Shown here: in pieces, positions 1 through 64,000 of the stretch
Layout: every line of letters begins with the position of its first letter
Position numbering within the stretch: the stretch's first letter is position 1
DNA from: an uncultured Coriobacteriia bacterium
GTDB taxonomy: Bacteria; Actinomycetota; Coriobacteriia; Anaerosomatales; JAAXUF01
Length of the DNA: 64,000 bases
NCBI GenBank assembly: GCA_963803785.1
Contig: CAWDNM010000008.1
Coordinates: forward strand, 35,411 to 99,410
Direction of reading: 5' to 3'
Translations under genes and position numbers: made by a program
The notes under the pieces: generated by a model
Databases searched by the model: none
What the model was told of the DNA's origin: nothing
The model's input: only the letters and a program-made list of their open reading frames with translations

Positions 1-10
1 GAGCCGCGCG

Positions 11-1121
11 ATGAAGCCTGCCGTCGTCAAGGTCAACGCGACCAGTGCGGCCTACGAGGTGCTGATCGGCCCCGAGCTGCTCACGGACGTGGGCGAGCTT
101 GTTCGCCTTGTCGCGCCTGGCGCGCGCAACGTCGCGATCATCACCGACAACAACGTGGGCGACCTGTTCGGCCTTACAGTCGAGCGCAAGCTGATCGAGG
201 CGGGCATCGACGTGCACCCGCTCTCGGTCGCGGCAGGCGAGTCGTCGAAGAGCTGGGCAGTGGCGGGTGAGGTGCTCGAGGCGCTTGCCGAACTCAGGCT
301 CGATCGCGACGACCTGGTGCTCGCGCTCGGGGGCGGCGTCATCGGTGATCTCGCCGGGTTCGTGGCCGCGACCTACCTGCGGGGAATCAGCTTCGTCCAG
401 GTGCCGACGACGCTCCTTGCGCAGGTCGACTCGTCGGTCGGCGGCAAGACCGGTGTCGACCTTCGGGCGGGCAAGAACCTGGCTGGAGCGTTCAAGCAGC
501 CTTTGCTTGTGATCGCCGACACATCGACGCTGCAGCCTGCTTCCTGCGCCGGAATGGGCCAGCGGGTTGGCCGAAATCGCCAAAAGCGCAGTTGTAGACG
601 GTGAAGAGTTCTTCGGCTGGATGGAAGAGAACGCGGCGGCGCTCGTTGCGCGAGATGAGGCTGCCGTAAATGAGGCGATCAAGCGGTCCGTCGGGTTCAA
701 GTCGAGGGTAGTAACTGCCGATGAGACAGAAGCAGGACCACGCGAGTGCCTGAACTATGGTCACACGTTCGGTCATGCGCTTGAAAAGGTCTCTGGATAC
801 GGGTCCATTTCCCACGGAGTTGCCGTTGCTGAAGGCATGCGATTCGCTGCCAGACTCTCGGTTGAGGCAGGCTCCGCGAGCATGGAGCTGGTAGGGAGAC
901 AGGATAGGCTGCTGGACGCACTGGGGTTGCCGGCTTTGGAGACATGGCTTGAACCGCGTGCGCTCCATGAGGCAATGCACTCGGACAAGAAGGCGCGAGG
1001 TGGGAGTGTGCGATTCGTCTTGCTCGACGCTGCTGGTGTGTGGAGGTGCGAGCCGGTCGCCGACGCGATGATCGGAGAGCATGTCAAGGCTTGGGCTGAT
1101 TCAAAGAGCCAGGGATGCCCA
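11..1121 (+). CDS. aroB: 3-dehydroquinate synthase; reading frame switches from ORF 11..604 to ORF 567..1583 around nt 545-600 (apparent indel)
   Basis: N-terminal ORF 11..604 ([10 protein letters not shown]...[11 protein letters not shown]...[10 protein letters not shown]) and continuation in frame of 567..1583 ([11 protein letters not shown]...) carry the DHQ synthase motifs. Combined length is ~360 aa. The 3' end runs in frame into aroQ with no stop. Confidence 0.8.
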
Positions 1122-1583
1122 ATGAGGCGGATTCTGGTGCTCAACGGGCCCAATCTCAATCTCCTTGGCAGTCGCGAACCGGCTGTGTACGGATCTGTCG
1201 GTCTGGCAGCGATCGCGGAAGAGACGGGTGCGTTGGCAAGCGAGTTGGGTGTGGAGGTCGTGTTCGAGCAGAGTAACCACGAAGGTGAGCTGATCGACGT
1301 GCTGCATGCGGCACAGGGTACGTACGACGCGGTGGTCTTCAATCCGGGGGCCTGTACGCACTATTCGTACGCGCTGCGTGACGCTGTTGCCGCGATCGGC
1401 TTGCCGGTCGTCGAGGTGCATCTCTCGAACATCGCGGCACGGGAGAGCTTCCGGCACGAGAGCGTCATCGCGCCCGCGTGTGTCGGCCAGATCAGCGGAT
1501 TTGGAGCGAGACTCATACCTACTGGGTCTGCGCGCGGCCGTGGCGGCGTGCGGCTGACCCAGATGGCGAACGGTAGAGAATGA
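1122..1583 (+). CDS. aroQ: type II 3-dehydroquinate dehydratase
   Basis: ATG at 1122 begins [24 protein letters not shown]...[13 protein letters not shown], the signature of type II dehydroquinase. Ends TGA at 1583. Size is ~153 aa. Confidence 0.9.
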
Positions 1584-1633
1584 AACCGGCGCGACATGCG
1601 CCGAGGACCAGAGGCGGCATAGGGAGTGGCACG

Positions 1634-3439: not shown

Positions 3440-3446
3440 GACAGCC

Positions 3447-6723: not shown

Positions 6724-7285
6724 GTGCCAGTCACTACTGCCCAGTTCAAGACCGGTATGTGCATCGTCCACGACAGCAAGCGCTGGTTGATCATCGACTT
6801 CCAGCACGTCAAGCCCGGCAAGGGCGGTGCGTTCGTGCGCACCAAGCTCAAGGAGCTGCAGTCCGGCCGCGTGGTCGAGTACACGTTCCGTGCGGGCGAG
6901 AAGTTCGACGACGTGCATCTCCAGAACCAGAAGATGCAGTATCTCTACAACGACGGCGACACCTACTACTTCATGGACAACACGTCCTACGAGCAGATCG
7001 AGCTCGGCGCAGGACTTCGTCGGCGAGTCTGCCAAGTGGCTCAAGGAGAACGACGAGGTCGAGGTCATGACCGCCGACGGCGAGTACCTCGGCGTCGAGC
7101 CGCCGATGTTCGTCGAGCTCGAGGTCATCGAGACCGACCCGGGCTTCAAGGGCGACACCGTCCAGGGCGGCACGAAGCCCGCCACGCTCGAGACCGGCGC
7201 GGTGGTGCAGGTCCCGATGTTCATCAACAACGGCGAGAAGCTTCGGATCGACACGCGCGACGGACGCTACATCACGCGCGTCTAG
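6724..7285 (+). CDS. efp: elongation factor P; one apparent frameshift near 7010-7030
   Basis: GTG 6724 after AAGGAGAA gives [45 protein letters not shown]. The C-terminal half in ORF 6827..7285 reads ...[26 protein letters not shown]. Confidence 0.9.
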
Positions 7286-9340: not shown

Positions 9341-10700
9341 TTGTTCGATCGCATCCTCATCGCCAACCGTGGCGAAGTCGCACTGCGCGTCATCCGCGCT
9401 GCCAAGGAGATGGGCGTCGAGACCGTCGCCGTCTACTCGGAGGCCGACCGCGACTCGCTTCACGCGCGCATGGCCGACCACGCCGTCTGCATCGGACCGG
9501 CCGCCTCGGCGCTGTCGTACCTGAGCATGCCCAACATCATCTCGGCCGCGCTGCAGACCGGCGCGCAGGCGATTCACCCCGGCTACGGCTTCCTCGCTGA
9601 GAACTCCGCGTTCGCTCGCGCCTGTGCTGACTCCGGTCTCGTCTTCATCGGCCCGTCGCCTGACGCGATCGACCGCATGGGCGACAAGTCGGTCGCTCGA
9701 GAGACGATGATGGCTGCCGGCGTGCCCACCGTTCCTGGCTCCGACGGTGCCGTCGAGAGCTACGAGGAGGCGCTGCGCTTCGCCGAGCAGGTCGGCTTCC
9801 CGGTGCTCATCAAGGCGAGCGCGGGTGGTGGCGGCAAGGGCATGCGCGTCGCCAAGTCCGCCGACGAGCTGCACGCCAACCTCACGGCCGCCAAGACCGA
9901 GGCCGCTGCGGCGTTCGGCAACGACACCGTCTACATCGAGAAGTACCTGCTGCGCCCGCGCCACGTCGAGATGCAGGTGCTCGCCGACACGCACGGCAAC
10001 GCGGTGCACCTCTTCGAGCGCGACTGCTCGATCCAGCGCCGCCACCAGAAGCTCGTCGAGGAGGCCCCCAGCCCCGCGATGACGCCGGAGCTGCGTGCCG
10101 CGATGGGCGAGGCCGCCATGAAGGCGGTTCGTGCCGTCGACTACGTCAACGCCGGCACCGTCGAGTTCCTGCTCGACACCGACGGCAAGTTCTACTTCAT
10201 GGAGATGAACACCCGCGTCCAGGTCGAGCACCCCATCTCCGAGCAGATCACCGGCGTCGACATCATCAAGGAGCAGATCCGCATCGCTTCCGGTGAGCCG
10301 ATGCGCCACACGACGCAGGACAAGATCGAGTGCCGCGGCCACGCGATCGAGTTCCGCATCAACGCCGAGGACCCGGCGCACAACTTCCGTCCGCACCCCG
10401 GCACCATCTCGGTGTTCAACCCGCCGGGCGGCTTCGGCGTGCGCATCGACACCCACGTGTACTCCGGCTACTCGGTGCCGCCGAACTACGATTCGCTGCT
10501 CGGAAAGCTCATCGTGTGGGGCGAGACACGCGACGAGGCCGTCGCCCGAGCACGCCGTGCGCTCGACGAGTTCATCGTGATCGGCATCCCGACCACGATC
10601 CCGTTCCACCAGGCGGTCGTCGAGAATGCGACGTTCCAGAGTGGCGACGTCTATACTGACTTCGTCGAGACCGAGATGAGCGGCGTTCTAAGTCCTGCGC
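9341..10700 (+). CDS. accC: biotin carboxylase (ATP-grasp), apparently intact; 3' end approximate (no in-frame stop before next gene)
   Basis: TTG 9341 after GGAGG gives MFDRILIANRGEVALRVIRAAKEMGVETVAVYSEADRDSLH...GGGGKGMRV...EMNTRVQVEHPISE.... This is a full-length biotin carboxylase. The ORF reads through to 10864, likely from a lost stop. Confidence 0.85.
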
Positions 10701-10720
10701 CGCGGAGGAGAGCGACACGT

Positions 10721-11074
10721 ATGTCTGACGAACTTCGCCTCGAGGGTCTGGGCGTAGCGCCCGGAGTGCTCGACACCATCGTGACCTTTGCCGCCGAGGG
10801 CGTCGAAGGCGTTGCCGCCGTGGGCGCTCCGGCCTCGCGGGCCTCGTGCAGAAGGGTGCCCTGACCAAGGGCTGCCTCACGCGCGGTCGACGTCTGCGTC
10901 GCCGAGGATGGCGCTCTGAGCGCCACGATCCACCTTCAGGTCCTCTACGGCCACAAGCTCAAGGACGTCGCCAACAACGTGCAGGCGGCTGTCGCCGACG
11001 CAGTGTCGAGCCAGGTCGGCGTGAACGTCGCCGCGGTCGATGTCTACGTCGATGGCATCGTCTTCGCCGAGTAG
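10721..11074 (+). CDS. Asp23/Gls24 (YloU/YqhY-like) family protein; 1-2 apparent frameshifts
   Basis: ATG 10721 after GGAGGAG gives MSDELRLEGLGVAPGVLDTIVTFAAEGVEGVAAVG. An alternate frame gives ...DGALSATIHLQVLYGHKLKDVANNVQAAVADAVSSQVGVNVAAVDVYVDGIVFAE*, stopping at 11074. The accC-asp23-nusB order is the classic Gram-positive arrangement. Confidence 0.6.
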
Positions 11075-11081
11075 GACGCCG

Positions 11082-11514
11082 ATGCTCGAACGCAGCAGGG
11101 CGCGCCGTCTGGCGATGCAGATTCTCTACCAGCGCGACATCACCGGCGAGAGCGTGGCGGTGATTCTCGGCACGAAGGCATACTCGGTCGAGGACGGCGA
11201 GCCCGACGACTTCTGCCGGCAGCTCGTCACCGGCGTCGAGGAGCATCTGCCCGAGATCGACGAGACGCATCGGGACGGTCTCGGAGAACTGGTCTGTGTC
11301 GCGCATGCCGCTCGTGGACCGCAACATTCTGCGGCTCGCGACGTACGAGGTGCTCTTCGTCGACGACGTGCCGCCGAGTGTCGCCATCAACGAGGCGGTC
11401 GAACTCGCCAAGGTATTCGGCGGCGAGGACTCCTCGAAGTTCGTGAACGGGGTTCTCGGCAAGATCGCCGAGAGGCATGCGGCCGAAGATGAGAAGGAAC
11501 CAGCCGATGAGTGA
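11082..11514 (+). CDS. nusB: transcription antitermination factor NusB; one apparent frameshift near 11290
   Basis: ATG 11082 gives [23 protein letters not shown].... The C-terminal half in ORF 11296..11514 reads ...[51 protein letters not shown]. Confidence 0.8.
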
Positions 11515-11860: not shown

Positions 11861-11971
11861 CAAACCGCTGTTCGCGGGTACGTTCCGCGTTGTCCCGCAG
11901 CCTGTGGGCGCAGTATGCTCGACATGGTTCATGCAATCCGCACCGGACTCGATGCGTGACTGACGGAAGAG

Positions 11972-13905
11972 ATGGGGCTCGTGCCCGAACGAATTCTCGA
12001 CTCCATACAAGCGCCGTGCGACATCAAGGGCCTGACGCAGGCCGAGCTCGCGCAGCTGGCCGACGAGATCCGCACCGAACTCGTGACCACGGTCTCGAAG
12101 ACGGGCGGTCACTTGGCACCCAACCTCGGCGCGGTCGAGCTGACGCTCGGCATCCACCGCGCGCTCGACTGCCCTCGCGACCGCATCATCTTCGACGTCG
12201 GGCACCAGTCCTACGTCCACAAGCTCCTCACCGGACGTCTCGAGCGCTTCTCGACGCTGCGGCAGTACGGCGGCGTGTGCGGCTTCCCCAAGCGCAGCGA
12301 GAGCCCGTACGACTCCTTCGACACCGGTCACGCGTCGGACTCGCTGTCGGTCGCACTCGGGCTCGCTCGTGCGCGCGAGGCGCAGGGCGAGCGACGAGAC
12401 GGTGCGTCGTCGTCATCGGCGACGGGTCGATGACGGGCGGGATGGCGTTCGAGGCGCTCAACCACATCGGGCATCTCGGCACGCCGCTGGTGATCGTGCT
12501 CAACGACAACGAGATGTCGATCTCCGAGAACGTCGGCGCGCTGGCGAGCTATCTGGCCCGTGTGCGTCTGGACCCCCGCTACAACCGGCTGCGCGACGGC
12601 GTCGAGACCAAGCTCGCGACCACCAACGTGGGGCGCGTCGATGGTCGAGTTCGGCGAGGCCGTGAAGGGCTCGTTCAAGCAGCTGGTCGTGCCGGGCATG
12701 CTCTTCGAGGAGCTCGGGCTGAAGTACGTCGGCCCCATCGACGGCCACGACATCGCGCAGGTGCAGGAAGCGGTCGAGCGAGCCAAGACCTCCGACGGCC
12801 CGGTCATCATCCACGCGGTGACGCGCAAGGGCGCCGGCTACGTGCACGCCGAGGATTCGCCGGACGCGTTCCACGGCATCGCGCCGTTCTCGATCGAGAC
12901 GGGCAAGGCGCACAGCAAGCCCGGTGCGCCCATCAGCTTCACCGAGGCGTTCTCGCAGGCTCTGGTCGCCGAGGCGGCCGACAACGACCGCATCGTCGCG
13001 ATCACGGCGGCGATGCCGTCCGGCACCGGGCTCGACCTGCTTCGCCGAGACCTACCCCGAGCGCTTCTACGACGTCGGCATCGCCGAGGAGCACGCCGTC
13101 GGCATGGCCGCCGGCCTCGCGCTCGGCGGCATGCTCCCGGTCGTCGCGGTGTACTCGACGTTCGTGCAGCGGGCCTACGACCAGATGATCATGGACGTCG
13201 CGCTGCAGAACCTGCACGTCGTGTTCTGCCTCGACCGCGCGGGACTCGTGGGCGAGGACGGCCCGACGCACCACGGCGTGTTCGATCTCACCTACCTGCG
13301 CTCGATCCCGAACATGATGCTGCTCGCACCGGCCGACGAGGCCGAGCTCGCCGAAGCGCTGCACACCGCGCTCGTCGCCGATGGACCGGTCGCGATCCGC
13401 TACCCGCGCGGTGCCGGCAGCGGCGTTGAGATGCCCGCCTCGCCCGCCACGTGGGATGCGGGCCGCGCGCAGGTTCGTCGCACCGGCAGCGATGTCGCGC
13501 TGCTCGCGGTCGGCCGCATGGTCGGCACGGCCGAGGAAGCCGCCGCAGATGCTCGAGGCCAAGGGCGTCTCGGCGAGTGTCGTCAACGCGCGCTGGGTCA
13601 AGCCGCTCGACTTCGAGACCGTCTCGTGGGCGGCGACCAACCACCGGCTCGTCGTGACCATCGAGGAGAACACCGGCATGGGTGGGTTCGGCGCGGCGGT
13701 GTGCGAGGCGCTCGCCGACATGGACCTCCAGGTGCCGATCCTGCGACTCGCGGTGCCCGACTGCTTCGTGCACGCACGGCGCCATGAGCAAGCTCCTCTC
13801 GGACGTCGGGCTGACTCCGGAGGGCGTGAGCACGGCGGTTCTCGGCAGGCTCGAGGACGTGCCGGCCGCCGGCTCGTCCGGCTCGCTCTCGGAAGGGGAG
13901 ACGAG
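11972..13905 (+). CDS. dxs: 1-deoxy-D-xylulose-5-phosphate synthase; >=6 apparent frameshifts, 3' end approximate
   Basis: Fragments found in order: 11972..12433 ([13 protein letters not shown]...[13 protein letters not shown]), 11755-frame ([19 protein letters not shown]), 12560..13429, 12924..13787 ([29 protein letters not shown]...), 13381..13908, 13682..13939. Together they give a ~640 aa DXS. Confidence 0.8.
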
Positions 13906-50960: not shown

Positions 50961-50963
50961 CCG

Positions 50964-52370
50964 TTGTCTGAGCAGGTCTATGCGCACTTCATCGGTGCTG
51001 GCGGGGCCGGCATGAGCGGCATCGCGCTCGTGCTTGCGGAGCGCGGCGTGCGCGTCACCGGCAGCGACCTGAAGGAGTCGCGCTACTCGCGTGCGCTTCG
51101 AGGCTGCCGGAGTCCCGGTCGCCATCGGCCATGCCGCCGAGAATCTTGGGGACCCGCAGGTCGTGGTGGTCTCCTCGGCGATTCCCGAGACGAACCCCGA
51201 GCTCGCCGAGGCGCGCAGGCGCGGGCATACCGGTGTGGCCGCGCGCCAAGATGCTCGCGCATCTGGCCGGGGAGCGCGACACGATCGCCGTCGCCGGCAC
51301 GCACGGCAAGACCTCGACGAGCTCGATGATCGCCACGATGCTCTCGCGCATGGGCCTCGCGCCCGACCTTTCTCATCGGCGGCGAGGTCGACGGGTTCGA
51401 CACGAACGCGGTGAACGGCTCCGGCGACCACTACGTGGTCGAGGCCGACGAGAGCGACGGATCGTTCATTCACCTCGACCCGCGACATCGCTGTCGTCAC
51501 CAACGTCGAGGCCGATCACCTCGACCACTACGGCACGCTCGAGGCGGTCGAGGCGACCTTCTGCGAGTTCATGGAGCGCGTGCCCGACGACGGCACGCTC
51601 GTCATCTGCGGTGACGACGCCCGGCTCGTCGAGCTGGCGGGCACCACCGGGCGCACCATCGTCACCTACGGGTTCGCCGAGACGTGCGACGTGCGCTGCC
51701 GCACCCTCGAGCGCACCGGTGTCGGCACCCGGTTCGAGGTCGAGGTACCGGGCGGCGATGCGTGCCGAGTCGCTCACGCGCACGCCGGGCAGCCACATGG
51801 TCGCCAACGCGACCGCGGCGCTTGCGACCGCCTGGGTGCTCGGGCTCGACCTGGTCGAGGCGGCCGCTGCGCTCGCGGAGTTCACGGGCGTGCGCCGCCG
51901 CTTCGACCTGATCGGCGAGGCCGGCGGCGTGACCGTGGTCGACGACTACGCCCACCATCCCACCGAGGTTCGCGCGACGCTCACGGCCGCGCGCGAGCTC
52001 GGCTTCGAGCGCGTGATCGTGCTGTTCCAGCCGCACCGCTACTCGCGCACCGGCGCGCTCGGCCGAGGAGTTCGCCGAGGCGTTCGGGTCGGCGACCCGT
52101 CGGTGCTGATGGATGTGTACAGCGCCGGCGAGCCGCCGATTCCCGGGGTCTCCGGCAAGACCGTCCTCGACGCGCTCCTGCGCAGGCACCCTCGTACCCA
52201 GGCGACCTACCTGCCGCACCGCACCGACATCGTGCCCTATCTCTCCTCGCGCGTCCGCGCGGGCGACCTGGTTCTCACGATGGGAGCGGGTGACGTCACG
52301 GCGATCGGCCCGGAACTCGTAGGTGCGCTGCAGGGCCAGCGCGGACAAGGACGTCGTCGCCGTGCCGGTA
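50964..52370 (+). CDS. murC: UDP-N-acetylmuramate--L-alanine ligase; >=4 apparent frameshifts, 3' end approximate
   Basis: TTG 50964 after ACGGAGGACT gives [36 protein letters not shown].... Later fragments read ...[20 protein letters not shown]..., ...[17 protein letters not shown]... and ...[22 protein letters not shown]...[11 protein letters not shown].... Confidence 0.8.
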
Positions 52371-53284
52371 GCCGAGGCATACAGGCGCCTGCGCGCGGAA
52401 CTGAGCGGGCTCGGTCCGCCGGGACGAGCCGATGACGCGCCACACGACCTACCGCATCGGCGGTCCGGCCGCGCTGCTCGTCGAGTGCGCCAGCGTCGCG
52501 GACCTCGCCACGGCAACCGAGCATTCTCGCCGAGGAGGACGTCGACTGGCGCGTTCTCGGCAAGGGCAGCAACGTGCTCGTCTCCGACGATGGCTACGAC
52601 GGTGCGGTGCTGACTCTCGGGCCGCGACTTCAAGCGCCACTCGCTCGAGGGCGATCAGCTTGCGCTCGGGAGCGGGCGTCATCCTCGCGCGCTGTCGTGC
52701 GCGACGCCTTCTCGGAGGGGCGCACCGGCCTCGAGTTCGCCGTCGGCATCCCGGGTACCGTCGGCGGCGCGCTGGCCATGAACGCCGGTAGTCGCGAGGA
52801 GTGGATCGGCTCGATCGTGGAGTCGGTGACGCTCTTCGTGCCGGGGGAGGGGCTCGTTGGCGTTCGCGGACCCGAGATCGACGTGGGGCTATCGGACGAG
52901 CGGGCTGCAGGCGCGCGGCATCATCGTCGAGACCGTGCTTCGACTGGTGGAGGGCGACGCCGACCTCATCCGCCGCAGCATGGAGGCAAGCCTGCGACGC
53001 CGCAAGCGCACCCAGCCGCTTTCGATGCCCAGCGCGGGAAGCGTGTTCGTGAACCCTGAAGGCGATTCGGCCGGACGACTCATCGAGGCCGCCGGGCTGA
53101 AGGGGACTCGCGTCGGCGGGGCAGAGGTGTCTGACGTGCACGCGAACTTCATCGTCAACGTCGGCGGCGCGACCGCCGCCGACGTCGTGGCGCTCGTCCG
53201 TCTCATTCGCGATACCGTGAAGGAGGCGCATGGCATCGAACTCACGCCGGAAGTCCGGTTCCTCGGCCGTTCGACGGGTCGTAA
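52362..53284 (+). CDS. murB: UDP-N-acetylenolpyruvoylglucosamine reductase; 3 apparent frameshifts
   Basis: Fragments read ...AEAYRRLRAELSGL..MTRHTTYRIGGPAALLVECASVADLATA...DWRVLGKGSNVLVSDDGYDGAVL..., ...GLEFAVGIPGTVGGALAMNAGS... and ...SAGSVFVNPEGDSAGRLIEAAGLKGTRVGGAEVSDVHANFIVN.... It ends ...EVRFLGR/PFDGS*, TAA at 53282-53284. Confidence 0.75.
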
Positions 53285-53425
53285 GCGCGTCGTCATCGGT
53301 GCCGCGGAAACGGTACGGGTCCGGTACAAGAAGAACGAGCCTGAAGTCGAGTCCGAGCGCCGACGAGCTCCGAGCTCCGCGGGAGCGCGCGTGCCTCGCG
53401 CACCGGCAAGGGCCCCGGCGCACGG

Positions 53426-54205
53426 ATGGCCAACGCCAAGCGCGACGAACGCGAGCAGCGTCAGCGTGCGCTGGCGCGGCGTCGCGCCCTCGTGGTCGGC
53501 GGGAACCGTCGCTGTGCGTCGTCGCTGCAGTCTGGGGGCTCGTGGCCCTGTGGCGCGCGCCGATCTTCTCGGTCGAGACGATCGACCGTCAGCGGGAACC
53601 GTCGGCTCACTGACGGCCGACAGTCCTCGCGCGAGCCCAGGTTCCCGGACGATGCGACGCTGCTGCGGCTGCAACAAGCGCGAGATCAGTCGATCGGCTT
53701 CTGCCGATCCCTGGATCGCCGAGGCGCGACTCGACCGCCAGTTCCCGCATACGCTCGGCATCGAGATCGTCGAGCGCGACGCCAGTGGCGACGATCGATG
53801 CCGGCGGCACGCAAATCTGGCTCGTCGACGGCTCGGGCATCTGGCTCGCGAAGCGCTCGGCCGAGGACACCGCCGACGCTCCCGGTCGTCCGCGATATCG
53901 AGAAGCTCGCGCCGCAGGCGGGCGCCCGTTCGGACTCGCCGGAGCTGCTGAACGCGCTGGCGGTTCTTGGCGGCCTGAGTCCCGAGCTTCGCTCGCGAAG
54001 GTCCGCACGGTTTCGGCACCGAGCATCGACCGGACGGCGCTGGTTCTCCCTCGAGGCGTGCAGGTGATCGTCGGCAGCGCTGAGGACGTCGCGAAGAAGG
54101 ACACTGTCGCGCGCGCCATCCTCGCGGAGAACAAGAACGTGGTCTCACGTGAACGTTCGAGTCGTCAATCGGCCGACGTGGCGCGGGCTGGATTCCGGCA
54201 ACTAG
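53426..54205 (+). CDS. ftsQ: cell division protein FtsQ/DivIB-like; 4 apparent frameshifts, boundaries approximate
   Basis: ATG 53426 gives MANAKRDEREQRQRALARRRALVVGG (basic N-terminus). The TM segment reads ...VAAVWGLVALWRAPIFSVETIDVSGNRRLTDG. POTRA-like fragments read ...TLLRLQQARDQ... and ...TQIWLVDGSGIWLAKRS.... The tail reads ...VQVIVGSAEDVAKKDTVARAILAENKNVVS... Confidence 0.6.
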
Positions 54206-54382: not shown

Positions 54383-55472
54383 ATGCTCGAGACGGGCGCT
54401 AACTACCTAGCAGTGATCAAGGTCGTCGGTATCGGCGGCGGCGGCACCAATGCGATCAATCGCATGGTCGAAGCCGGCGTCAAGGGCGTCGAGTTCATCG
54501 CGGTGAACACCGATGCGCAGGCACTGCTGATGTCGGACGCCGACTACAAGGTCCACATCGGCGTCAATCTCACCAAGGGCCTCGGCGCAGGCGCCGATCC
54601 GGATGTCGGGTTCCAGGCCGCCGAGGAGAATCGCGGTGAGATCAAGGAGGCGCTTCAGGGCGCCGACATGGTCTTCGTCACGGCGGGCGAGGGCGGCGGC
54701 ACCGGCACTGGTGCCGCACCCGTCATCGCGCAGATCGCGAAGGAGGAGATCGGCGCGCTCACCGTGGGTGTCGTCACTCGGCCGTTCGCGTTTGAGGGTC
54801 GCAAGCGTGCGCTGCAGGCCGACGACGGCATCAAGCGTCTCGGCGACGTGGTCGACACGCTGATCATCATCCCCAACGACCGCCTGCTCCAGGTCGCCGA
54901 GAAGAAGACCTCGATCCTCGATGCGTTCCGGATCGCGGATGACATTCTTCGCCAGGGCACCCAGGGCATCACGGATCTCATCACGGTGCCCGGGCTGATC
55001 AACCTCGACTTCGCTGACGTTCGCACGATCATGGCCAACGCGGGGTCGGCGCTGATGGGTATCGGCCTTGCCGCTGGTGACAACCGGGCGCACGATGCTG
55101 CGACAGCCGCCATCTCAAGCCCGCTCGCTCGAGTCCTCGATTCAGGGCGCCCAGGGCGTGCTGCTCTCCATCTGTGGTGGCAGCGATCTGGGCCTGTTCG
55201 AGGTCAACGAGGCCGCAGAGGTGGTTGCTGCGGCGGCTGCCCCTGATGCCAACATCATCTTCGGAGCCGTCATCGACGATTCGATGATGGATCAGATTCG
55301 CGTGACCGTCATCGCGACCGGGTTCAACGGCCGCAAGCGCCAGGAGACGATGCAGTTCGCAGCGGTCGGGGATGAGGACGAGGGCGGCACGCCTCTCGGA
55401 GTGCCGGTATACGAGTCCCTGCCCGAAGAGGACCTCGATATCCCGGCGTTCCTGAAGAAGCGGTCTTTCTAG
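54383..55472 (+). CDS. ftsZ: cell division GTPase FtsZ; one apparent frameshift ~55130
   Basis: ATG 54383 after GGAGGG gives [48 protein letters not shown]...[11 protein letters not shown]...[19 protein letters not shown].... The C-terminal fragment 55068..55472 ends ...[13 protein letters not shown]. Confidence 0.9.
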
Positions 55473-55610: not shown

Positions 55611-55625
55611 TGTGAAGAGTGATGT

Positions 55626-56666
55626 CTACTCGGCCGGGGGCTCAGAGTCCGCAGGCGGACCGAACGCTGCGTCCGGCGCGGGAGCTGCGGGCGCAGGCGC
55701 GGGAGGCGGCTCATACGCGGGCGGCTCGGGAGCGACCGGAGCGGGAGCCGCTGGCGGCACGTAGGCGGGCGGCTCGGGAGCTGCGGCGGGCGCAGGCGCG
55801 GGAGGCTCGTACGCCGGTGCTGCGGGAGGTGCCGGAGGTGCGTACGCCGGAGGCGACGCGGGAGCCTGGTAGCCGCCGGGAGCAGCGGGGGGAGCGGGCT
55901 GCGCCGGAGGTGCCGGAGGCGTGTAGGCGGGCGGAGGAGGCGGAGCGTACCCGCCGGGGGCAGCTGCGCCAGCATAGGCGGGCGCACCGGAGCCCAGGCC
56001 CGGATAGCCGTACGACTTGGCGGCCCACTGGCCGAAGAGGTGGCCGGTGATCATGGTCATGAGGTAGATGGCCGCCGGATAGATGATGGCGCCGATACCG
56101 GTGGCCGAGAGCACGCTCATGACCGCGCCGACGCCGAATCCGATGACGAGTGACCACATCCATGCGACGAAGTAGCCGCTGCCATCCCTGACGTGGCCGA
56201 GAATCTCACCGAACTGGAAGAACGCGCCGAAGTTACCCTTCACCGCGTAGTGCACGATCGCCGCGTAGAAGAGCACGGACACCGCGACGATGTAGACGGT
56301 CGCGATGAGACTGAACAGGCATCCGCCTCCTGCGAGCAGGCCACCGGCAGCATTGCCGCCGTCCATCGCGGCCGAGATGATGCCCGGGACGACCATTATG
56401 AAGCCGAGAACGATGATGGGGAGGAAGTAGATGAACCCGGCGACACTCACCATGAAGCCCTTGACCCACTTGTTGCCGAAGTCGGACCAGTCGGGGAGCT
56501 CCTCGTTGCCGTTCGAGACGCGCGTGATGTACTCCAGCTGAGCGCCGTAGACGACCGGTGAGGTGATGCCGAGCAAGAGCCAAAGGAAGCCCAGAGCCGT
56601 CTTGGCCGGCCACCCCTTGTCGTTGAAGGGCGCTTTGAGTGCCCTTCCGAAATCAATGCTGTCCAT
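55626..56666 (-). CDS. DUF4013-like polytopic membrane protein with C-terminal Pro/Ala-rich repetitive tail (PPAY/PAPPA repeats), apparently intact
   Basis: Minus-strand ATG at 56666 after GGAGAGGGG gives MDSIDFGRALKAPFNDKGWPAKTALGFLWLLLGITSPVVYGAQLEYITRVSNGNEELPDWSDFGNKWVKGFMVSVAGFIYFLPIIVLGF.... It has ~6 TM helices. The tail reads ...APAYAGAAAPGGYAPPPPPAYTPPAPPAQPAPPAAPGGYQAPASPPAYAPPAPPAAPAYEPPAPAPAAAPEPPAYVPPAAPAPVAPEPPAYEPPPAPAPAAPAPDAAFGPPADSEPPAE*. Confidence 0.6.
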   Translation of the reverse strand: MDSIDFGRALKAPFNDKGWPAKTALGFLWLLLGITSPVVYGAQLEYITRVSNGNEELPDWSDFGNKWVKGFMVSVAGFIYFLPIIVLGFIMVVPGIISAAMDGGNAAGGLLAGGGCLFSLIATVYIVAVSVLFYAAIVHYAVKGNFGAFFQFGEILGHVRDGSGYFVAWMWSLVIGFGVGAVMSVLSATGIGAIIYPAAIYLMTMITGHLFGQWAAKSYGYPGLGSGAPAYAGAAAPGGYAPPPPPAYTPPAPPAQPAPPAAPGGYQAPASPPAYAPPAPPAAPAYEPPAPAPAAAPEPPAYVPPAAPAPVAPEPPAYEPPPAPAPAAPAPDAAFGPPADSEPPAE

Positions 56667-57601: not shown

Positions 57602-58447
57602 GTGCTCTCGGACGCGTTCATCGGCGTCTCTCTGATCCTCGCGGCGCTCGTTCTGGTCTCCGGTTGCGCGGGAGGGCAGAGGGCTTCGACCGACGTCATC
57701 GTCAGCGGCTCGACAACGCTGCTTCCCATCGCCGAGGAGTCCGCAAAGGCCTACACCGACGGGCACCCTGACACGAAGGTGCTCGTCTCGGGGATGGGCT
57801 CTTCCGCGGGCATCGAGGCGGTGTCCGCGGGAACGGCCGACATCGGGACGTCGTCCCGTGACCTCAAGGACGAGGAGGCCGATCTCGGTCTGCTCGACAC
57901 GCCGATCGCCTACGACGGCATCGCCGTCATCGTGAGCCCGGAGAACCCCGTGACCGGACTCACCTCGGAGCAGCTTCAGGGGATCTTCGCCGGCAAGATC
58001 ACGAACTGGAGCGAGGTTGGCGGTACCGATCGCAGAATCGACCTCGTGAACCGCGATGAGGCCTCTGGTACCCGAGAGGCTTTCAAGAAGATCGTGATGG
58101 GCGACGTTCCGTTCGACCCCGCGGCCGCGGTGCTTCCCGGCACCGGGCAGGTGCGCGACGTCGTCGCCCGCGCTCCCGGCGCTATCGGCTACATCTCGGC
58201 CGGATTCGTGGCGCCCCGCTTCACCAACGTGAAGGTCAAGGCGCTTGAGATCGACGGCGTTGCGCCTACCGAGAAGAATATCGGCTCGTCTGCGTACCCG
58301 ATCGGTCGAACACTCCACTTCTTCACCAAGGGCGCGCCGACCGGGCCGACCAAGGACTACGTCGACTACGTGCTCTCCGATGAGGTACAGCAAGGTGTAG
58401 TCGTCGATGCGGGATTCATCCCGATTGCTGAAGGGGGGAAGCAGTGA
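57602..58447 (+). CDS. pstS: phosphate ABC transporter substrate-binding lipoprotein PstS; start approximate (continuous in frame with pgeF)
   Basis: LSDAFIGVSLILAALVLVSGCAGG (lipobox), then ...DVIVSGSTTLLPIAEESAKAYTDGHPDTKVLVSGMGSSAGIEAVSAGTADIGTSSRDLKDEE...GAIGYISAGFV.... Stop at 58447. Sits upstream of pstCAB. Confidence 0.7.
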   Translation: MLSDAFIGVSLILAALVLVSGCAGGQRASTDVIVSGSTTLLPIAEESAKAYTDGHPDTKVLVSGMGSSAGIEAVSAGTADIGTSSRDLKDEEADLGLLDTPIAYDGIAVIVSPENPVTGLTSEQLQGIFAGKITNWSEVGGTDRRIDLVNRDEASGTREAFKKIVMGDVPFDPAAAVLPGTGQVRDVVARAPGAIGYISAGFVAPRFTNVKVKALEIDGVAPTEKNIGSSAYPIGRTLHFFTKGAPTGPTKDYVDYVLSDEVQQGVVVDAGFIPIAEGGKQ

Positions 58448-58489
58448 GCGACCCAGACCGATCAGCCCGCTAGCGGAACCCTCCAGCTC

Positions 58490-59347
58490 GTGTCGAGGTC
58501 TACCTACGTGAAGGAGTCACTCCTCAAGGGCCTCTTCTTCGTCTGTGCGTTCATGTTCGTGCTGGCGGTTGCCCTCATCTTCATCTTCGTGGCCTGGAAG
58601 GCATGGCCGATCGTCACCGACTACGGTCTGGGCAAGTTCATCACCGGCACGGAGTGGTCGGCGAGCAACGAGAGCTTCGGTATCCTGCCGCTTATCGTGG
58701 GCAGCCTGATAGTGACGTTTGGCGCGCTCGCTCTCGGAACCCCGCTGGCGGTCGGTACGGCGGTGTTCCTCTCTGAGATTGCGCCACCAAAGGTGCGCGC
58801 GGTCGTGCGGCCCGCAGTGGAGCTGCTCGCGGGCATACCGTCGATCGTCTACGGCTTCTTCGGCATCATTCTGCTGCGCTCGATCGTGTCTGAGTTCACC
58901 GGGTCGCTCGGCTTTGGCGCGTTCACCGCGTGGATCGTGCTTGCGATCATGATCGTGCCGACCATCGCAGCACTGTCCGAGGACGCACTGCGCTCGATTC
59001 CCGAGGGGATTCGCGAGGCCTCGTACGCGATGGGGGCGACGCAGTGGCAGACGATCTACAAGGTCGTGGTGCCGGCGGCGAAGATCGGCATCATCGATGC
59101 CATCATCTTGGGAATGGGACGAGCGATCGGCGAGACGATGGCGGTGCTCCTGGTCGTCGGCAATGCGCCGGTATTCCCTGAGGGCATATTCGCCCCGCTC
59201 TCGACGATGACGACTCAGATCGTCATGGACATGCCGTACGCAGTTGGCCTGCACCGAACCGCGCTCTTCGCGATGGCGGCGATGCTGTTCGTCTTCTCGA
59301 TGTTCCTCGTTGCAAGTGTCCGCCTCTTGTCGAGGTTGAGGGATTAG
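58490..59347 (+). CDS. pstC: phosphate ABC transporter permease PstC, intact
   Basis: GTG 58490 gives VSRSTYVKESLLKGLFFVCAFMFVLAVALIFIFV.... The EAA-like loop is ...DALRSIPEGIREASYAMGATQWQTIYKVVVPAAKIGIIDAIILGMGRAIGETMAV.... Confidence 0.85.
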   Translation: MSRSTYVKESLLKGLFFVCAFMFVLAVALIFIFVAWKAWPIVTDYGLGKFITGTEWSASNESFGILPLIVGSLIVTFGALALGTPLAVGTAVFLSEIAPPKVRAVVRPAVELLAGIPSIVYGFFGIILLRSIVSEFTGSLGFGAFTAWIVLAIMIVPTIAALSEDALRSIPEGIREASYAMGATQWQTIYKVVVPAAKIGIIDAIILGMGRAIGETMAVLLVVGNAPVFPEGIFAPLSTMTTQIVMDMPYAVGLHRTALFAMAAMLFVFSMFLVASVRLLSRLRD

Positions 59348-59348
59348 C

Positions 59349-60173
59349 GTGAACAAGACTCTCGCCAACAAGATCGCGGTCGGCGTCCTGTGGTTCATGG
59401 CCGGCTGTACGGTGGCTATCCTCGGCACGCTGCTGCTCTACGTGTTCGTGAATGGTATCCGGGCGATCTCCCCCGAGTTCATCTTCACGTGGCCGCGAGG
59501 CGTGCACGCCGAGGGCGGAATCTGGCCGACTATCGTCGCCACGGTGTACGTGACGACGCTCGCCATGCTCATCTCCACGCCGGTTGCCGTTCTCGCCGCG
59601 GTCTACCTCGCCGAGTACGCGTATCAGGGCAGAGCCGTCTCGGCCATCCGTTTTGCAGCCGACTCGCTGGCCAGCGTGCCGTCGATCGTCATGGGCCTGT
59701 TCGGGTTCGCCCTGTTTGTCGAGGCGATGGGGTTCGGGCTATCGATGGTCTCGGCGGCGCTCGCGCTGTCCCTGCTGATGTTGCCGATCATCATGCGAGC
59801 GACGGAGGAAGCGATCCGAGCGGTCCCGAAGTACATGCGCTGGGGCTCCTACGGGCTGGGCGCAACCAAGTGGCAGACGGTGAGCAAGATCGTGCTGCCG
59901 TCGGCCTCGCCTCGGATCATCACCGGCATCGTGTTGGCGATGGGTCGCGCGGTGGGAGAGACCGCTGTCGTTCTCTACACGATGGGCCAGGCGATCAACC
60001 TGCCGCTCCTCCCGATCGATTCGGGTCGACCGATGACTGTTCACCTCTACCTGCTCGCCGTCGAGGGCATCAACCTGCCCGCTGCGTTCGGCACGGCCCT
60101 GCTGCTCATTGTCATGATCCTCGGGTTCAATCTGTCCGCCCGCTGGATCCTGCGTCGTTCTCGGAAGGTGTGA
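59349..60173 (+). CDS. pstA: phosphate ABC transporter permease PstA, intact
   Basis: GTG 59349 gives [25 protein letters not shown].... The central loop reads ...[55 protein letters not shown].... Confidence 0.85.
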
Positions 60174-60177
60174 CGAG

Positions 60178-60991
60178 ATGTCGGTATCGCTTGGCACGCA
60201 AGGCCTGGTCCAGATGGGTCCTGCGAAGGTCCACGTCAAGGACCTCAGCTTCTGGTACGGGGACTTCAACGCCCTGACGGGGATCACCGTCGACATCAGC
60301 CAGAAGGCGACCACTGCGTTCATCGGGCCGTCCGGGTGTGGCAAGTCGACGTTCCTGCGCTGCATCAACCGCATGAACGACCTGATTCCGGGTACGCAGC
60401 GTCGAGGGCACCATGCTTATCGACGGGGCGGACATCTACGGGACGGGCGTCGACCCCGTCGACCTCCGCAGGCGCGTCGGGATGATCTTCCAACAGCCGA
60501 ACCCGTTCCCGCAGTCGATCTACGACAACGTGGCGTATGGGCCTCGCCTGCAAGGCATCAAGAAGCGGTCGGAGCTTGACGCGATCGTCGAGGACTCACT
60601 CAAGCGCGCGAACCTGTGGAAAGAGGTCAAGGACATCCTCGGGAAGAACGGTCTTGCCCTTTCGGGTGGCCAGCAGCAGCGGCTGTGCATCGCCAGAGTG
60701 TTGGCGGTGCAGCCCGAGGTGCTGCTCATGGACGAGCCGTGCTCGGCGATCGATCCGACTTCGGTGCAGAAGATCGAGGACTTGATGTCCGAGCTCAAGG
60801 ACACGGTCACGATCGTCATCGTCACCCACAACATGCAGCAGGCCGCTCGCGTGAGCGACTTCACCGCCTTCTTCCTGCAGGAGGTCGCCGGAGAGCCTGC
60901 GGTCCTGGTGGAGTTCGGGCGCACCAACGAACTCTTCACCAGCCCCACGGACAAGCGTACGGAAGACTACATCACGGGTCGCTTCGGCTAG
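60178..60991 (+). CDS. pstB: phosphate ABC transporter ATP-binding protein PstB; one apparent frameshift ~60400
   Basis: ATG 60178 gives ...[52 protein letters not shown].... The second frame reads ...[33 protein letters not shown]...[19 protein letters not shown].... Stop at 60991. Confidence 0.85.
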
Positions 60992-61110: not shown

Positions 61111-61788
61111 ATGCGCGAGCAATTCAGACAAGAACTCAAAGCGGTTCACGGCGAGGTCGTTGACATCCTCCTTGTGGTAACCGAACAGACCCGTAACGCC
61201 GTCCAGTCGCTCATCAACGGTGACGTCGACTTGGCCGAGGCTGTCATCGCTCGCGACGAGGAACTCGACTCCAGGTGCGTCGGGGTTGAGGAGCGCGTGC
61301 TCGAGACCATAGCCACTCAGTTCCCGGTCGCCCGCGATCTGCGTCTCCTGCAGTCACTCGCCTACATGGCGATACACCTCGAGAGGATGGCCGACCTGTC
61401 GGTCAACATCGCGAAGTCGACGAAGCGCACTGCCAGTCGCCGCGGTCCCCAGACGCTGCTCGACTTGATCCAGGCCCAAGGGAACCTCGTGTACAGGGTG
61501 CTGGACGCTACCCGCGAAGCGCTCGACAAGCGCGATCTCGAGCTTGCCTTGAAGCTGCCCGAGCTCGACGAGCCGATCGATCACCTCTACAAGCAGTTCT
61601 TCCGAGAACTCGCCAGGTTGCACGACGAGGAAGACATCGAGTGGGCGTCGTCGATGGTGCTTGCTAGCCGTCATCTCGAGCGCATCGCCGACCACGCGGT
61701 CGATATCGGCGAGAGAACCGCCTACTTGATCACGGGGGACAGGGACGTCTATCCCGGAGAACACTCGACCGAGCCGGCCGGGGAGTAG
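61111..61788 (+). CDS. phoU: phosphate signaling complex protein PhoU, intact
   Basis: ATG 61111 after GAGGAG gives MREQFRQELKAVHGEVVDILLVVTEQTRNAVQSLINGDVDLAEAVIARDEELDS...LERMADLSVNIAKS...HLERIADHAVDIGERTAYLITGD... (the two PhoU repeats). Confidence 0.85.
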   Translation: MREQFRQELKAVHGEVVDILLVVTEQTRNAVQSLINGDVDLAEAVIARDEELDSRCVGVEERVLETIATQFPVARDLRLLQSLAYMAIHLERMADLSVNIAKSTKRTASRRGPQTLLDLIQAQGNLVYRVLDATREALDKRDLELALKLPELDEPIDHLYKQFFRELARLHDEEDIEWASSMVLASRHLERIADHAVDIGERTAYLITGDRDVYPGEHSTEPAGE

Positions 61789-61791
61789 CCC

Positions 61792-62469
61792 GTGGCCGCC
61801 GTCGCGTCCCGCTACGAGACGGTGCGGCGACAAGTAGCCCATGCCGCCGACATCGCCGGCCGCTCGCCAGAAGAGATCACCATCGTCGCGGTGACCAAGA
61901 CCGTTGGCATCGACGATATTCGCTCGGCGCTCGCCGCGGGCGTCTTGGACTTCGGCGAGAATCGCGTGCAGGAGTTCTTGGGCAAGTACGGGCTGTTTCC
62001 CGATGCGAACTGGCACTTCATCGGGACGCTGCAGACCAACAAGGTCAAAGACGTCGTTGGCCGTGCCTGCCTCATCCACTCCGTTGACTCGCTGCACCTG
62101 CTCGAGGAGATCGGCAAGCGAGCCCAGGCCGCCGGTCTTGTCCAGCCGGTATTGCTGCAGGTGAATGTCTCCGGTGAGGGCTCGAAGCATGGATTCGACT
62201 GCAGCGACGTGCGCGAGGCGTTGATCGAAGCGTCGCACCTGCCCAACGTGGAGGTTCGCGGCCTGATGACCATGGCCCCCTTCGGCCGTCCGGAGGATGC
62301 GCGCTGGGTCTTCCGCGAGCTGCGGGAACTGCGGGATTCGCTTCGGGAGATGCCGCTCAATAGTGTAGAGTTGAACGAGCTCTCCATGGGCATGAGCAAC
62401 GACTTCCGCGTCGCTGTTGAAGAGGGGTCCACGATCGTTCGTGTCGGCGGAGCCATCTTCGGTCGGTAG
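61792..62469 (+). CDS. yggS: YggS-family pyridoxal-phosphate homeostasis protein, intact
   Basis: GTG 61792 gives MAAVASRYETVRRQVAHAADIAGRSPEEITIVAVTKTVGIDDIRSALAAGVLDFGENRVQEF...FIGTLQTNKVK...LLQVNVSGEGSKHGF...NELSMGMSNDFRVAVEEGSTIVRVGGAIFG. Confidence 0.85.
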   Translation: MAAVASRYETVRRQVAHAADIAGRSPEEITIVAVTKTVGIDDIRSALAAGVLDFGENRVQEFLGKYGLFPDANWHFIGTLQTNKVKDVVGRACLIHSVDSLHLLEEIGKRAQAAGLVQPVLLQVNVSGEGSKHGFDCSDVREALIEASHLPNVEVRGLMTMAPFGRPEDARWVFRELRELRDSLREMPLNSVELNELSMGMSNDFRVAVEEGSTIVRVGGAIFGR

Positions 62470-62491: not shown

Positions 62492-63056
62492 GTGAGCTTG
62501 TGGCACCGCATCAAAGTCCGCCTCGGTCTCGAAGACGAGTGGGATGACGAGTACTACGAGAACGAAGACGAGGACTACTACGAGGCGGAGGCGCAGGACG
62601 CTGACGAGGCGTACGCTCCTCGTCGTTCGGCGTCGTACGACTCGCCCGTATGGTTCCGGCGCTTCCGCCGGCGCTGTGAAGCGCCTTGACCGCGGTCCCG
62701 ACCTTGACCGGGCGCGTTCGGGTGGCTCGCTGCGCAGCGTTCCTGCCGGCCCGACGTCGGTCCAGCCGGCAGGCGCTCAGATGAAGATGCACATCGTCGA
62801 GCCGAAGTCGTTCACCGAGGCCCAGGCCATTGCCGACAAGTTCAAGCAGGGCACGCCGGTCATCATGAATATGGCCGTCACCCAGCCTGACTTGGCGAAG
62901 CGCCTTCTCGACTTCGCCTCCGGTCTCACCTACGGGCTGGACGGTGGTCTGCAGAAGGTCTCGGACAAGGTGTTCATGCTGACGCCTCACAATGTCGACG
63001 TGAGCGACGCCGATCGCCGCAGGCTGCGCGATACCGGCCTGTATTCCGGCGAGTAG
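62492..63056 (+). CDS. sepF: cell division protein SepF; one apparent frameshift ~62650
   Basis: GTG 62492 after AGGAGACGG gives VSLWHRIKVRLGLEDEWDDEYYENEDEDYYEAE.... The second frame reads ...MKMHIVEPKSFTEAQAIADKFKQGTPVIMNMAVTQPDLAKRLLDFASGLTYGLDGGLQKVSDKVFMLTPHNVDVS...* and stops at 63056. Confidence 0.8.
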
Positions 63057-63079
63057 ACCAGAGGCGAGAGGTAGTACGT

Positions 63080-63901
63080 ATGGCCGAGGGGTTCAGCTAC
63101 GAGGGCACCATCGCCGTGATCGGCGGTGGCCGCATGGGAGAGGCGATCGTCCGAGGCCTGTTGGCCGTCGGACTCGGTTGCGGTCGACCAGGTCACCATC
63201 GCTGAGCCGTCTGCAAGTCGCCGCAAGGAGCTCGCGAGCTCCTACGGCGTGCGGTGCGTCGCCGACGGGACCGAGGCACTTCCTGCTGACCTTGCACTCA
63301 TCGCCGTGAAGCCTCAGATCGCCGACGCGGTCGTCGGCGGGCTCTCCGAGGCTCTCGGCGCATCGCTGGTGGTGTCGATCGTCGCAGGCTTCTCCTGCGC
63401 CCGTCTCGAGTCGCTGCTGCCCGACGGCACGGCCGTCGTGCGAGTCATGCCGAACACGCCCGCGATGGTCGGGGAGGGCATGGCCGTGATCAGCGGCGGC
63501 GCGGAGGCGGCGCCCGAGCAGGTCGTGCTCGTCGAGTCGCTGTTCTCGCAGATCGGCCGTGCGGTCGTCGTCGACGAGCGCTACCAGAACGCGGCGACGG
63601 CGATATCTGGTTCCGGGCCCGCGTACTTCGCGCTCGTCATCGACGCGCTGTCGCGCGCCGGGGTGCGACAGGGGCTGGCTCGCGATGTGGCTCAGGCACT
63701 TGCGGTCCAGACGATGCTCGGCACGGCTCGGATGCTGGAAGAAACCGGCGTTCATCCCGAGGTGCTGATCGACGGACGTCTCGAGCCCCGGCGGCACGAC
63801 CATCGTCGCCATCGAGGCACTCGAAGCCGGCGGGCTTGCGCGCCGCGTTCGCCGAGGCGGTCGCCGCAAACGTGGCACGCTCGCAGGAGCTGGGCTCGTG
63901 A
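63080..63901 (+). CDS. proC: pyrroline-5-carboxylate reductase; ~3 apparent frameshifts
   Basis: ATG 63080 gives MAEGFSYEGTIAVIGGGRMGEAIVRGLLA.... Later fragments read ...ADLALIAVKPQIADAVVGGL..., ...VVRVMPNTPAMVGEGMAVISGG... and ...ISGSGPAYFALVIDALSRAGVRQGLARDVAQALAVQTMLGTARML.... It ends ...ARSQELGS* at 63901. Confidence 0.75.
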
Positions 63902-64000
63902 GTGGTATCCAGATCGCCAATGCGATTCGTGCCGTGGGCAGTTTCTACGGACTGCTCATCTTCGTCTACGTGATCATGTCGTGGTTTCCGATGCGGGGAG
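63898..64000 (+). CDS. yggT: YggT-family membrane protein, 5' fragment (runs off window end)
   Basis: GTG 63898 overlaps the proC stop and gives VSGIQIANAIRAVGSFYGLLIFVYVIMSWFPMRG.... This is the YggT-type start, in the conserved sepF-yggT position. Confidence 0.6.
   Translation, partial: MSGIQIANAIRAVGSFYGLLIFVYVIMSWFPMRG

Follow-up and report, generated by a model that had tools for sequence, protein, structure and literature searches.

Frameshift-fragmented genes have been documented in low-depth long-read assemblies, and the long-read indel problem has been described for low-coverage bins (PMC9262707; bioRxiv 10.1101/2021.08.23.457338; PMC12007338). The IDEEL test, proovframe and Kastor are directed at such genes in genomes and metagenome-assembled genomes (MAGs) with uncorrected Nanopore or PacBio CLR indels. 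Nanopore consensus errors have been described as homopolymer indels (PMC9262707), and for PacBio CLR raw reads 8% insertions versus 3% deletions have been quoted (10.1101/2021.08.23.457338). Moreover, false frameshifts have been described in a diploid eukaryote where nearby variants misalign reads (PMC8445201). Frameshifts of a different nature are found in Mycobacterium leprae, Sodalis and symbiotic Burkholderia, where nonsense, frameshift and deletion lesions are mixed and bacterial pseudogenes are biased towards deletions (PMC6054270, PMC2817411). In these genomes, divergence is elevated and the essential genes are intact.

The stretch analysed here (the window, 64,000 nucleotides) belongs to a deposited metagenome-assembled Coriobacteriia-like contig, whose consensus very probably carries uncorrected base-calling or consensus errors, the real genes of the organism being almost certainly intact. 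As in long-read assemblies with indel errors, its genes are split or truncated relative to their orthologues, single-base indels extend over most genes, reference-guided single-base edits restore the frames and the errors are assembly-specific. However, the textbook Nanopore signature consists of homopolymer indels, mostly deletions, while the errors of the window avoid homopolymers and insertions outnumber deletions by ~10:1. The raw-read profile quoted for PacBio CLR is also insertion-dominated. As in the diploid case (PMC8445201), the density of events correlates with divergence, here from a sister assembly, but the window is bacterial, shows no third-codon-position signal and is known from its consensus alone. 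Finally, many genes of the window are interrupted by frameshifts, as in Mycobacterium leprae, Sodalis and symbiotic Burkholderia, but neither their mixed lesions with a deletion bias, nor their elevated divergence, nor their intact essential genes are seen in it.

Extent and distribution of the frameshifts

A purpose-written, frameshift-tolerant protein-to-DNA alignment of intact orthologues against the window detected 202 frame-breaking indels in 16,611 aligned codons when the best reference per gene was taken (168 '+1', 15 '+2' and 19 '-1'), and 212 when all references were merged. This amounts to about 200 events in 49.8 kb of coding DNA, or ~1 per 245 nt, of which ~85% were +1 events (one extra base). 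The preliminary description had reported frameshifts in nearly every conserved gene, which was confirmed and proved even stronger than stated. At least one event was found in 40 of the 49 distinct genes (~80%), including all the essential genes named there as broken (ftsZ, murD, murG, ftsW, dxs, pyrG, recN, efp and nusB). Its rate of one indel per 0.4-0.6 kb was, on the other hand, too low, because a run of three +1 events returns to the original frame, and the ORF-level view thus under-counts the events about twofold.

Searches by tblastn with intact proteins of syntenic relatives also spread most genes of the window across 2-3 frames. Where two or three references covered one gene, the same sites recurred (e.g. 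all 7 in the murC body). Furthermore, intact relatives aligned pairwise at 42-96% identity gave only 3 events (orthologous pairs, ~64 kb), a false-positive rate close to zero, so that the events of the window are not alignment artefacts or the product of chance. The features considered were the following:

1..64000, whole window: syntenic Coriobacteriia-like segment with aroB ... accC ... dxs ... recN ... pyrG ... flotillin ... dcw cluster ... pst operon ... proC
~1510: +1 near the 3' end of aroQ
6724..7282, + strand: efp, a single +1 at ~7,011
9341..10864, + strand: accC, body 9341-10684 indel-free; an extra T at ~10,686 abolishes the stop codon and the ORF runs into asp23
11079..11511, + strand: nusB, a single +1 at 11,268 (C inserted)
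11963..13933, + strand: dxs, 6 +1 events (~12,389, 12,405, 12,640, 13,040, 13,545 and 13,771)
15557..17188, + strand: recN, 8 events
21982..25333, + strand: densest block, a 776-aa hypothetical gene and a Glycos_transf_4 family gene; 37 events in 3.35 kb (~11 per kb), from one reference (L085) at 68-70% identity
25391..27000, + strand: pyrG, +1 at ~26,153 and ~26,721
30643..32830, + strand: flotillin (Band_7) gene, A inserted at 31,143; the publicly called gene (P0121, 556 aa) begins shortly 3' of this insertion
32851..33762, + strand: xerD-like recombinase, indel-free
37808..38809, + strand: second permease gene of a nucleoside-type ABC transporter, indel-free
40824..41260, + strand: mraZ, a local hot spot with four 1-nt and two 2-nt insertions (8 extra bases in 437 nt); once repaired, 96% identity to the L084 orthologue
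46223..47254, + strand: mraY, 3 single-base insertions at 46,349 (G), 46,535 (G) and 46,979 (C)
47258..54202, + strand: second dense block with murD (14 events), ftsW (8), murG (5-7), murC (8-9), murB (6-7) and ftsQ (12-14); ~70 inserted bases in 7 kb
47450..47540, + strand: two murD sites common to the sister assembly (~47,456 and ~47,533), exceptions to the rule of private errors
54383..55469, + strand: ftsZ, G inserted at 55,127, GCCCGCTC[G]CTCGAG; pieces of 287 aa and 134 aa, the ORFs lying in two frames with the break near 55,130
55629..56666, - strand: DUF4013 membrane protein gene with an Ala/Pro-rich tail, frameshift-free
57620..60274, + strand: pstS, pstC and pstA, whose coding sequences are free of window-private indels; one insertion (58,451) falls between genes, and pstB, downstream of pstA, has one at 60,396
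61111..62466, + strand: phoU and yggS, indel-free in the window; the sister phoU has its own insertion at the position matching 61,272

Among the genes previously considered clean, xerD, pstC, pstA, phoU and yggS were indeed so, but aroQ and accC were not. Besides xerD, pstS, pstC, pstA, phoU, yggS and the second permease and DUF4013 genes, two small ORFs were likewise frameshift-free. Moreover, ald had 6 events despite 95% identity between relatives, while the poorly conserved DUF4013 gene was clean.

Between 0 and 16 events were counted per kb, an over-dispersed distribution (variance/mean 3.0). Thus, of the even spread assumed in the preliminary description, only the lack of concentration in a few genes was retained, the density being clearly blocky at the kb scale. 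GC content correlated with event density at the block level, and the local effect of GC on insertions vanished after controlling for the kb-scale block. An excess of 15-20 nt spacings was also observed, mostly attributable to quantisation by the alignment method together with the locally high density. The tRNA and Rfam scans of the window found no RNA genes, and therefore RNA genes could not be used as a selection-free test.

Character of the inserted bases

To pin insertions at the base level, L084 (84% identity) and then L089/L090 (94%) were taken as references in place of L081 and L082, whose FtsZ is 96-97% identical to that of the window but whose DNA, at only ~76%, is too distant for this purpose. 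The homopolymer runs to which the preliminary description had directed attention turned out not to harbour the sites: 67 of the 81 pinned insertions (83%) were unlike both neighbours, compared with 51% expected (p = 2e-9), and none of the 81 yielded a run of at least 4, though there are 100 of them in 18.4 kb. The codon phase at the insertion sites was random (20/11/15, p = 0.27), and the idea that each inserted base is the other allele of a strain SNP, set beside the first, was accordingly discarded for want of a third-position signal. Motif or methylation-site errors were also discarded, as the insertion junctions showed no preferred dinucleotide and no common motif and the sites were mostly absent from the 94% relative. 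Insertions were present between genes as well, no deletion longer than 2 nt was found inside the genes of the window, and the codon-position GC periodicity continued past each shift.

Absence of nonsense codons and repair of the reading frames

No genuine in-frame stop codon was found in the 16,611 aligned codons; one in-frame stop, at 30,620, precedes the start in the alignment of the second reference and is not a true nonsense codon. Since only 2.6% of random substitutions create a stop, random substitutions would reach at most ~0.23% per nt, versus 0.41% per nt for the indels. The frames were then repaired by deleting 88 insertions and restoring 9 deletions, that is, by 97 edits placed by DNA alignment alone, which gave full-length single-frame matches for murC, murB, ftsQ, ftsZ, ald, bmp, ABC, perm1, mraZ, rsmH, mraY, sepF and proC. 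Compared with intact orthologues, the repaired proteins showed identities of 97-98% (FtsZ), 94% (PyrG), 93-94% (Bmp), 93% (ABC ATPase) and 94-96% (MraZ).

Comparison with the sister assembly and the deposited record

The sister assembly (ENA ERZ25039459, contig_53144) has 94% DNA identity over positions 27,810-63,998 of the window and is a relative rather than the same strain; its contig name may point to a long-read assembler. In a genome-contig scan with FtsZ, only distant relatives of at most 70% identity appeared among the matches listed. A total of 87 of the 96 '+' events in 27,810-63,998 were gaps in the DNA alignment to the sister assembly, so ~90% of the insertions are absent there. 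In particular, mraY, murG, murB, ftsQ, ftsZ, yfiH, bmp, the first ABC permease gene (perm1), mraZ and rsmH are intact in the sister assembly, which has its own, different indels in ftsW, flotillin, DUF3866, phoU and sepF. None of the frameshift sites of the window was found in the intact relatives L081-L088. However, 5 sites, at ~40,037, ~47,456, ~47,533, ~48,927 and ~49,264, were common to the window and the sister assembly, two of them in the essential murD and two in ftsW, against ~1.3 expected by chance (our own estimate), which purely random independent errors would not predict.

Exact NCBI and ENA entries on one 111,855-bp contig exist for the truncated FtsZ (287 aa), for the flotillin fragment and for four further ORFs, and hence the errors reside in the deposited record.

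Origin of the frameshifts

That the frameshifts stem from sequencing or assembly errors and not from gene decay, as put forward in the preliminary description, was supported by every test run. The errors are nearly all spurious single extra bases at ~0.4% of positions on average, placed irrespective of genes, codon phase and homopolymers, and with a density that shifts in multi-kb blocks. Gene callers report fragments because each extra base throws the following codons out of frame, while three nearby insertions re-establish the frame and stay hidden from an ORF-level view. As for the cause, we infer that read depth was low or uneven, or that consensus building or polishing left an artefact, in a long-read metagenome assembly; a long-read source, unpolished or of low depth, would fit the errors of the window. 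It is quite improbable that a small, non-random part of the signal is real or systematic, with the shared sites being tolerated or recoded lineage-specific +1 sites, or marking a DNA feature (e.g. base modification) that reproducibly makes base-callers insert, or, more broadly, with the insertion-only, homopolymer-avoiding spectrum reflecting a pipeline-level consensus defect present in many public long-read MAGs.

The alternative that deserves most weight, though we consider it rather unlikely, is that slightly divergent co-occurring strains were merged and reads were misaligned at clustered variants, so that bases were added by the consensus or the polisher; the extra bases would still be artefacts, but microdiversity would be their driver, and not low depth alone. 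The collapsing of allelic variants has been reported to cause INDEL errors and false frameshifts in long-read assembly (PMC8445201), and in the window the insertion density per kb tracks the mismatch density to the sister assembly (rho 0.46, p = 0.005), the density is blocky, the inserted bases are mostly unlike their neighbours and a small number of sites are found again in the sister assembly. However, the insertions show no bias to third-codon-position neighbourhoods, where strain SNPs concentrate, and in the kilobase of mraZ/rsmH 7 extra bases are accompanied by only 18 mismatches to the sister.

Genuine mutation, either in a decaying genome whose pseudogenes are real or in relic DNA, with the dcw, isoprenoid and translation genes truly inactivated, would agree with the presence of the frameshifts in the deposited sequence and with the five sites common to a related assembly, but is highly improbable. 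In natural mutation, substitutions are typically about tenfold commoner than indels, and at such an excess ~50 stops would be expected, whereas 0 nonsense codons stand beside ~200 frameshifts. Moreover, large deletions are absent, intact orthologues match the sequence flanking the sites at 93-98% identity, the codon-position GC periodicity is kept, and essential single-copy genes that are intact in the 94% sister assembly are struck repeatedly (e.g. murD 14 times). The mix of lesions expected of pseudogenes is lacking, ftsZ, murC-G, mraY, ftsW, dxs, pyrG and efp are not spared, and the excess of insertions is opposite to the deletion bias of bacterial pseudogenes (PMC6054270, PMC2817411). The extra bases could also be real and bypassed by +1 ribosomal frameshifting, transcriptional slippage or RNA editing, as nearly all events share one direction (+1) and two shared sites fall in the essential murD; even so, the ~200 sites share neither a motif nor a junction dinucleotide and do not lie in slippery or homopolymeric tracts, ~90% are not conserved in the 94% relative and none in L081-L088, and some are intergenic, which leaves programmed recoding with a negligible probability. 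No bacterial system is known to recode at such density.

Consequences for the use of the contig

Until the sequence has been polished, no gene boundary, pseudogene call, protein length or inference on completeness or metabolism drawn from this contig is reliable. The truncated 287-aa FtsZ and the 556-aa flotillin are already separate public protein entries, and a close relative's assembly, also public, suffers from this problem at different sites. The spectrum of the errors has diagnostic value. Homopolymer-only checks would overlook such errors, and inspection of ORFs misses about half of the events. The insertions being private to the deposited assembly, and not the result of gene decay, the apparent pseudogenes are without biological meaning: they are no real feature of the organism, but a practical quality warning.

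Gene content and gene order

The G+C content of the window ranged from 64 to 71% per 4 kb, and neither tRNA genes nor Rfam matches were found in its 64 kb. The gene order was read from the syntenic contigs of relatives, while stretches without relative coverage were filled by Pfam hits:

aroB, aroQ, pilin-like ORFs, pepP, efp
oadA, accC, asp23, nusB, xseB, dxs
tlyA, nadK, recN, steA, mctB, GT2, murJ
776-aa hypothetical gene, glycosyltransferase, pyrG, M20 peptidase, DUF3866, ald
flotillin, xerD, Bmp/nucleoside ABC transporter, DUF4349
mraZ, rsmH, ftsI, murE, murF, mraY, murD, ftsW, murG, murC, murB, ftsQ, ftsZ
DUF4013, yfiH, pstSCAB, phoU, yggS, sepF, proC

The FtsZ rebuilt from the window had 97% identity to metagenomic FtsZ proteins and 84-90% to those of MAGs labelled Coriobacteriia, Anaerosomatales or Actinomycetota. 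The pilin-like ORFs (1,580-5,600) carried a motif for N-terminal methylation (weak N_methyl Pfam hits) and were too divergent for alignment to relatives. The DUF4013 membrane protein gene (55,629-56,666, minus strand), located between ftsZ and yfiH, has an Ala/Pro-rich repetitive tail; it occupies the same place in two contigs of intact relatives (L082 and L083) and in a sister assembly piece (L089), with the tail length differing among relatives by whole codons.

Number and distribution of frameshifts

When the intact proteins of relatives were used as tblastn queries, most genes were spread over two or three frames, and at the ORF level the frame of ftsZ switches near 55,130. Events were counted with a custom protein-to-DNA aligner that permits skips of one or two bases and overlaps of one base. 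Taking the best reference per gene, 16,611 codons (49.8 kb) were aligned, and a total of 202 frameshift events were found (168 with one extra base, 15 with two extra bases and 19 with one missing base), or 212 with all references merged. Genes covered by several references yielded identical sites again. Between intact relatives, compared pairwise at 42-96% identity, the same aligner found only 3 events in ~64 kb of orthologous pairs, so the events are a property of the window and not of the aligner. The pervasive frameshifts reported in the preliminary description were thereby confirmed by frameshift-aware alignment in 40 of 49 genes, at a rate (~1 per 245 nt) about twofold higher than it had estimated. 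The ORF-level view misses events because three nearby one-base insertions bring the frame back. Moreover, accC, previously taken as clean, does have an open ORF, but of 507 aa instead of ~449: an extra T two codons ahead of the stop (10,680-10,730; GGCG[T]TCTAA vs. GGCG-CCTGA in L086, a contig of an intact relative) abolishes the stop codon, and the ORF therefore extends to 10,864, into asp23.

The uniform spread formerly assumed was not borne out, as event density varied from 0 to 16 per kb (variance/mean ratio of 3.0):

Blocks with many events: ~22-25.3 kb; ~47.2-54.2 kb
Stretches with few events: ~30-40 kb; ~54.3-64 kb

Event density per kb rose with G+C content (rho 0.55, p = 4e-5) and with the number of mismatches against the sister assembly (rho 0.46, p = 0.005), while no correlation with local G+C was found when block was controlled for. 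Furthermore, mraZ (40,824-41,260) was a hot spot, its 437 nt containing eight extra bases amid an otherwise sparse region, and its kilobase had only 18 mismatches to the sister assembly, the insertions being clearly without accompanying substitutions. Blocks of several kb are compatible with uneven long-read support or with local strain mixing; mixing of that kind has been reported to cause indel errors in collapsed assemblies (PMC8445201).

Comparison with a sister assembly and repair

A sister assembly (ENA ERZ25039459 contig_53144, 298,353 bp), found via cluster membership, matched window positions 27,810-63,998 at 94.0-94.3% DNA identity, which made base-level placement of indels possible. 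In this range, 87 of 96 insertion events had a corresponding DNA gap. Across the 26.6 kb of coding DNA where outgroup proteins and the DNA alignment were both available, the indels backed by the two comprised 81 one-base insertions, 7 two-base insertions and 9 one-base deletions.

Frameshift events per gene (window; sister assembly)
mraY: 3; 0
murG: 5-7; 0
murB: 6-7; 0
ftsQ: 12-14; 0
ftsZ: 1; 0
bmp: 4; 0
mraZ: 6; 0
ftsW: 8; 9
flotillin: 1; 7 (3 one-base insertions, 4 one-base deletions)
DUF3866: 3-4; 13
phoU: 0; 1
sepF: 1; 2

Likewise, yfiH, rsmH and perm1 (the first permease gene of the Bmp/nucleoside transporter) were intact in the sister assembly, which carried at least 37 private single-base insertions, as well as deletions, and also had fragmented gene calls. 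Two near-identical genomes broken at differing sites are predicted by independent consensus errors, not by inherited mutations. Five frameshift sites were common to both assemblies (~40,037, 47,456, 47,533, 48,927 and 49,264; murD and ftsW contain two each), vs. ~1.3 expected by chance according to our own estimate. In each assembly, the conserved segments flanking either murD site clearly differed in frame. The five shared sites may represent base-calling or polishing errors that recur, or true changes specific to the lineage.

When 88 insertions were deleted and 9 deletions restored at the places indicated by the DNA alignment, murC, murB, ftsQ, ftsZ, ald, bmp, the ABC ATPase, perm1, mraZ, rsmH, mraY, sepF and proC each gave one full-length single-frame match. 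Identity rose from 44 to 82% for murB, from 40 to 67% for ftsQ and from 67 to 96% for mraZ, with repaired proteins reaching up to 98% identity to intact orthologues.

Error spectrum and origin

The homopolymer check suggested in the preliminary description came out negative: among the 81 pinned single insertions (34 G, 31 C, 10 A and 6 T), 67 (83%) differed from both neighbours, compared with 51% expected at random (p = 2e-9), and no insertion gave rise to a run of at least 4, whereas the 18.4-kb stretch contained 100 runs of that length. No motif or junction dinucleotide stood out at the insertion sites. The errors thus do not match the classical Nanopore homopolymer signature (PMC9262707). 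A raw-read profile dominated by insertions has been quoted for PacBio CLR (10.1101/2021.08.23.457338).

Genuine gene decay would make the broken genes real pseudogenes. Substitutions dominate natural mutation spectra, yet no genuine in-frame stop was found in the 16,611 aligned codons; the only candidate, at 30,620, was rejected, since the alignment of the second reference places it ahead of the start. A random substitution in these codons would create a stop in only 2.6% of cases, so the absence of stops bounds random substitutions at ~116 (0.23% per nt), less than the 0.41% per nt of indels. Moreover, insertions exceeded deletions by ~10:1, opposite to the deletion bias of bacterial pseudogenes (PMC6054270, PMC2817411). 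Events were not linked to dispensability or conservation either, ald having 6 despite 95% identity between relatives and the poorly conserved DUF4013 gene none. Codon phase at insertion points was random (20/11/15, p = 0.27), and insertions also appeared in intergenic DNA. With no real stop, a sister assembly without most of the indels and genes restored by repair, the assembly-error reading first proposed is supported over decay, and the frameshifts are almost certainly an artefact of assembly instead of a biological feature.

Presence in the public record

Six window ORFs were exact members of public collections on one 111,855-bp contig (NCBI and ENA). These were a 556-aa flotillin fragment (P0121; 31,166-32,833), beginning just past the frameshift at 31,143, a 287-aa FtsZ fragment (P0362; 54,383-55,243) and four further ORFs. 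The frame-breaking errors therefore sit in the deposited record, and, as the FtsZ and flotillin truncations are stored as separate public protein sequences, assembly errors have propagated into protein databases. The value of the finding is as a warning regarding the window's contig, the sister assembly and the truncated proteins that both gave to public databases.
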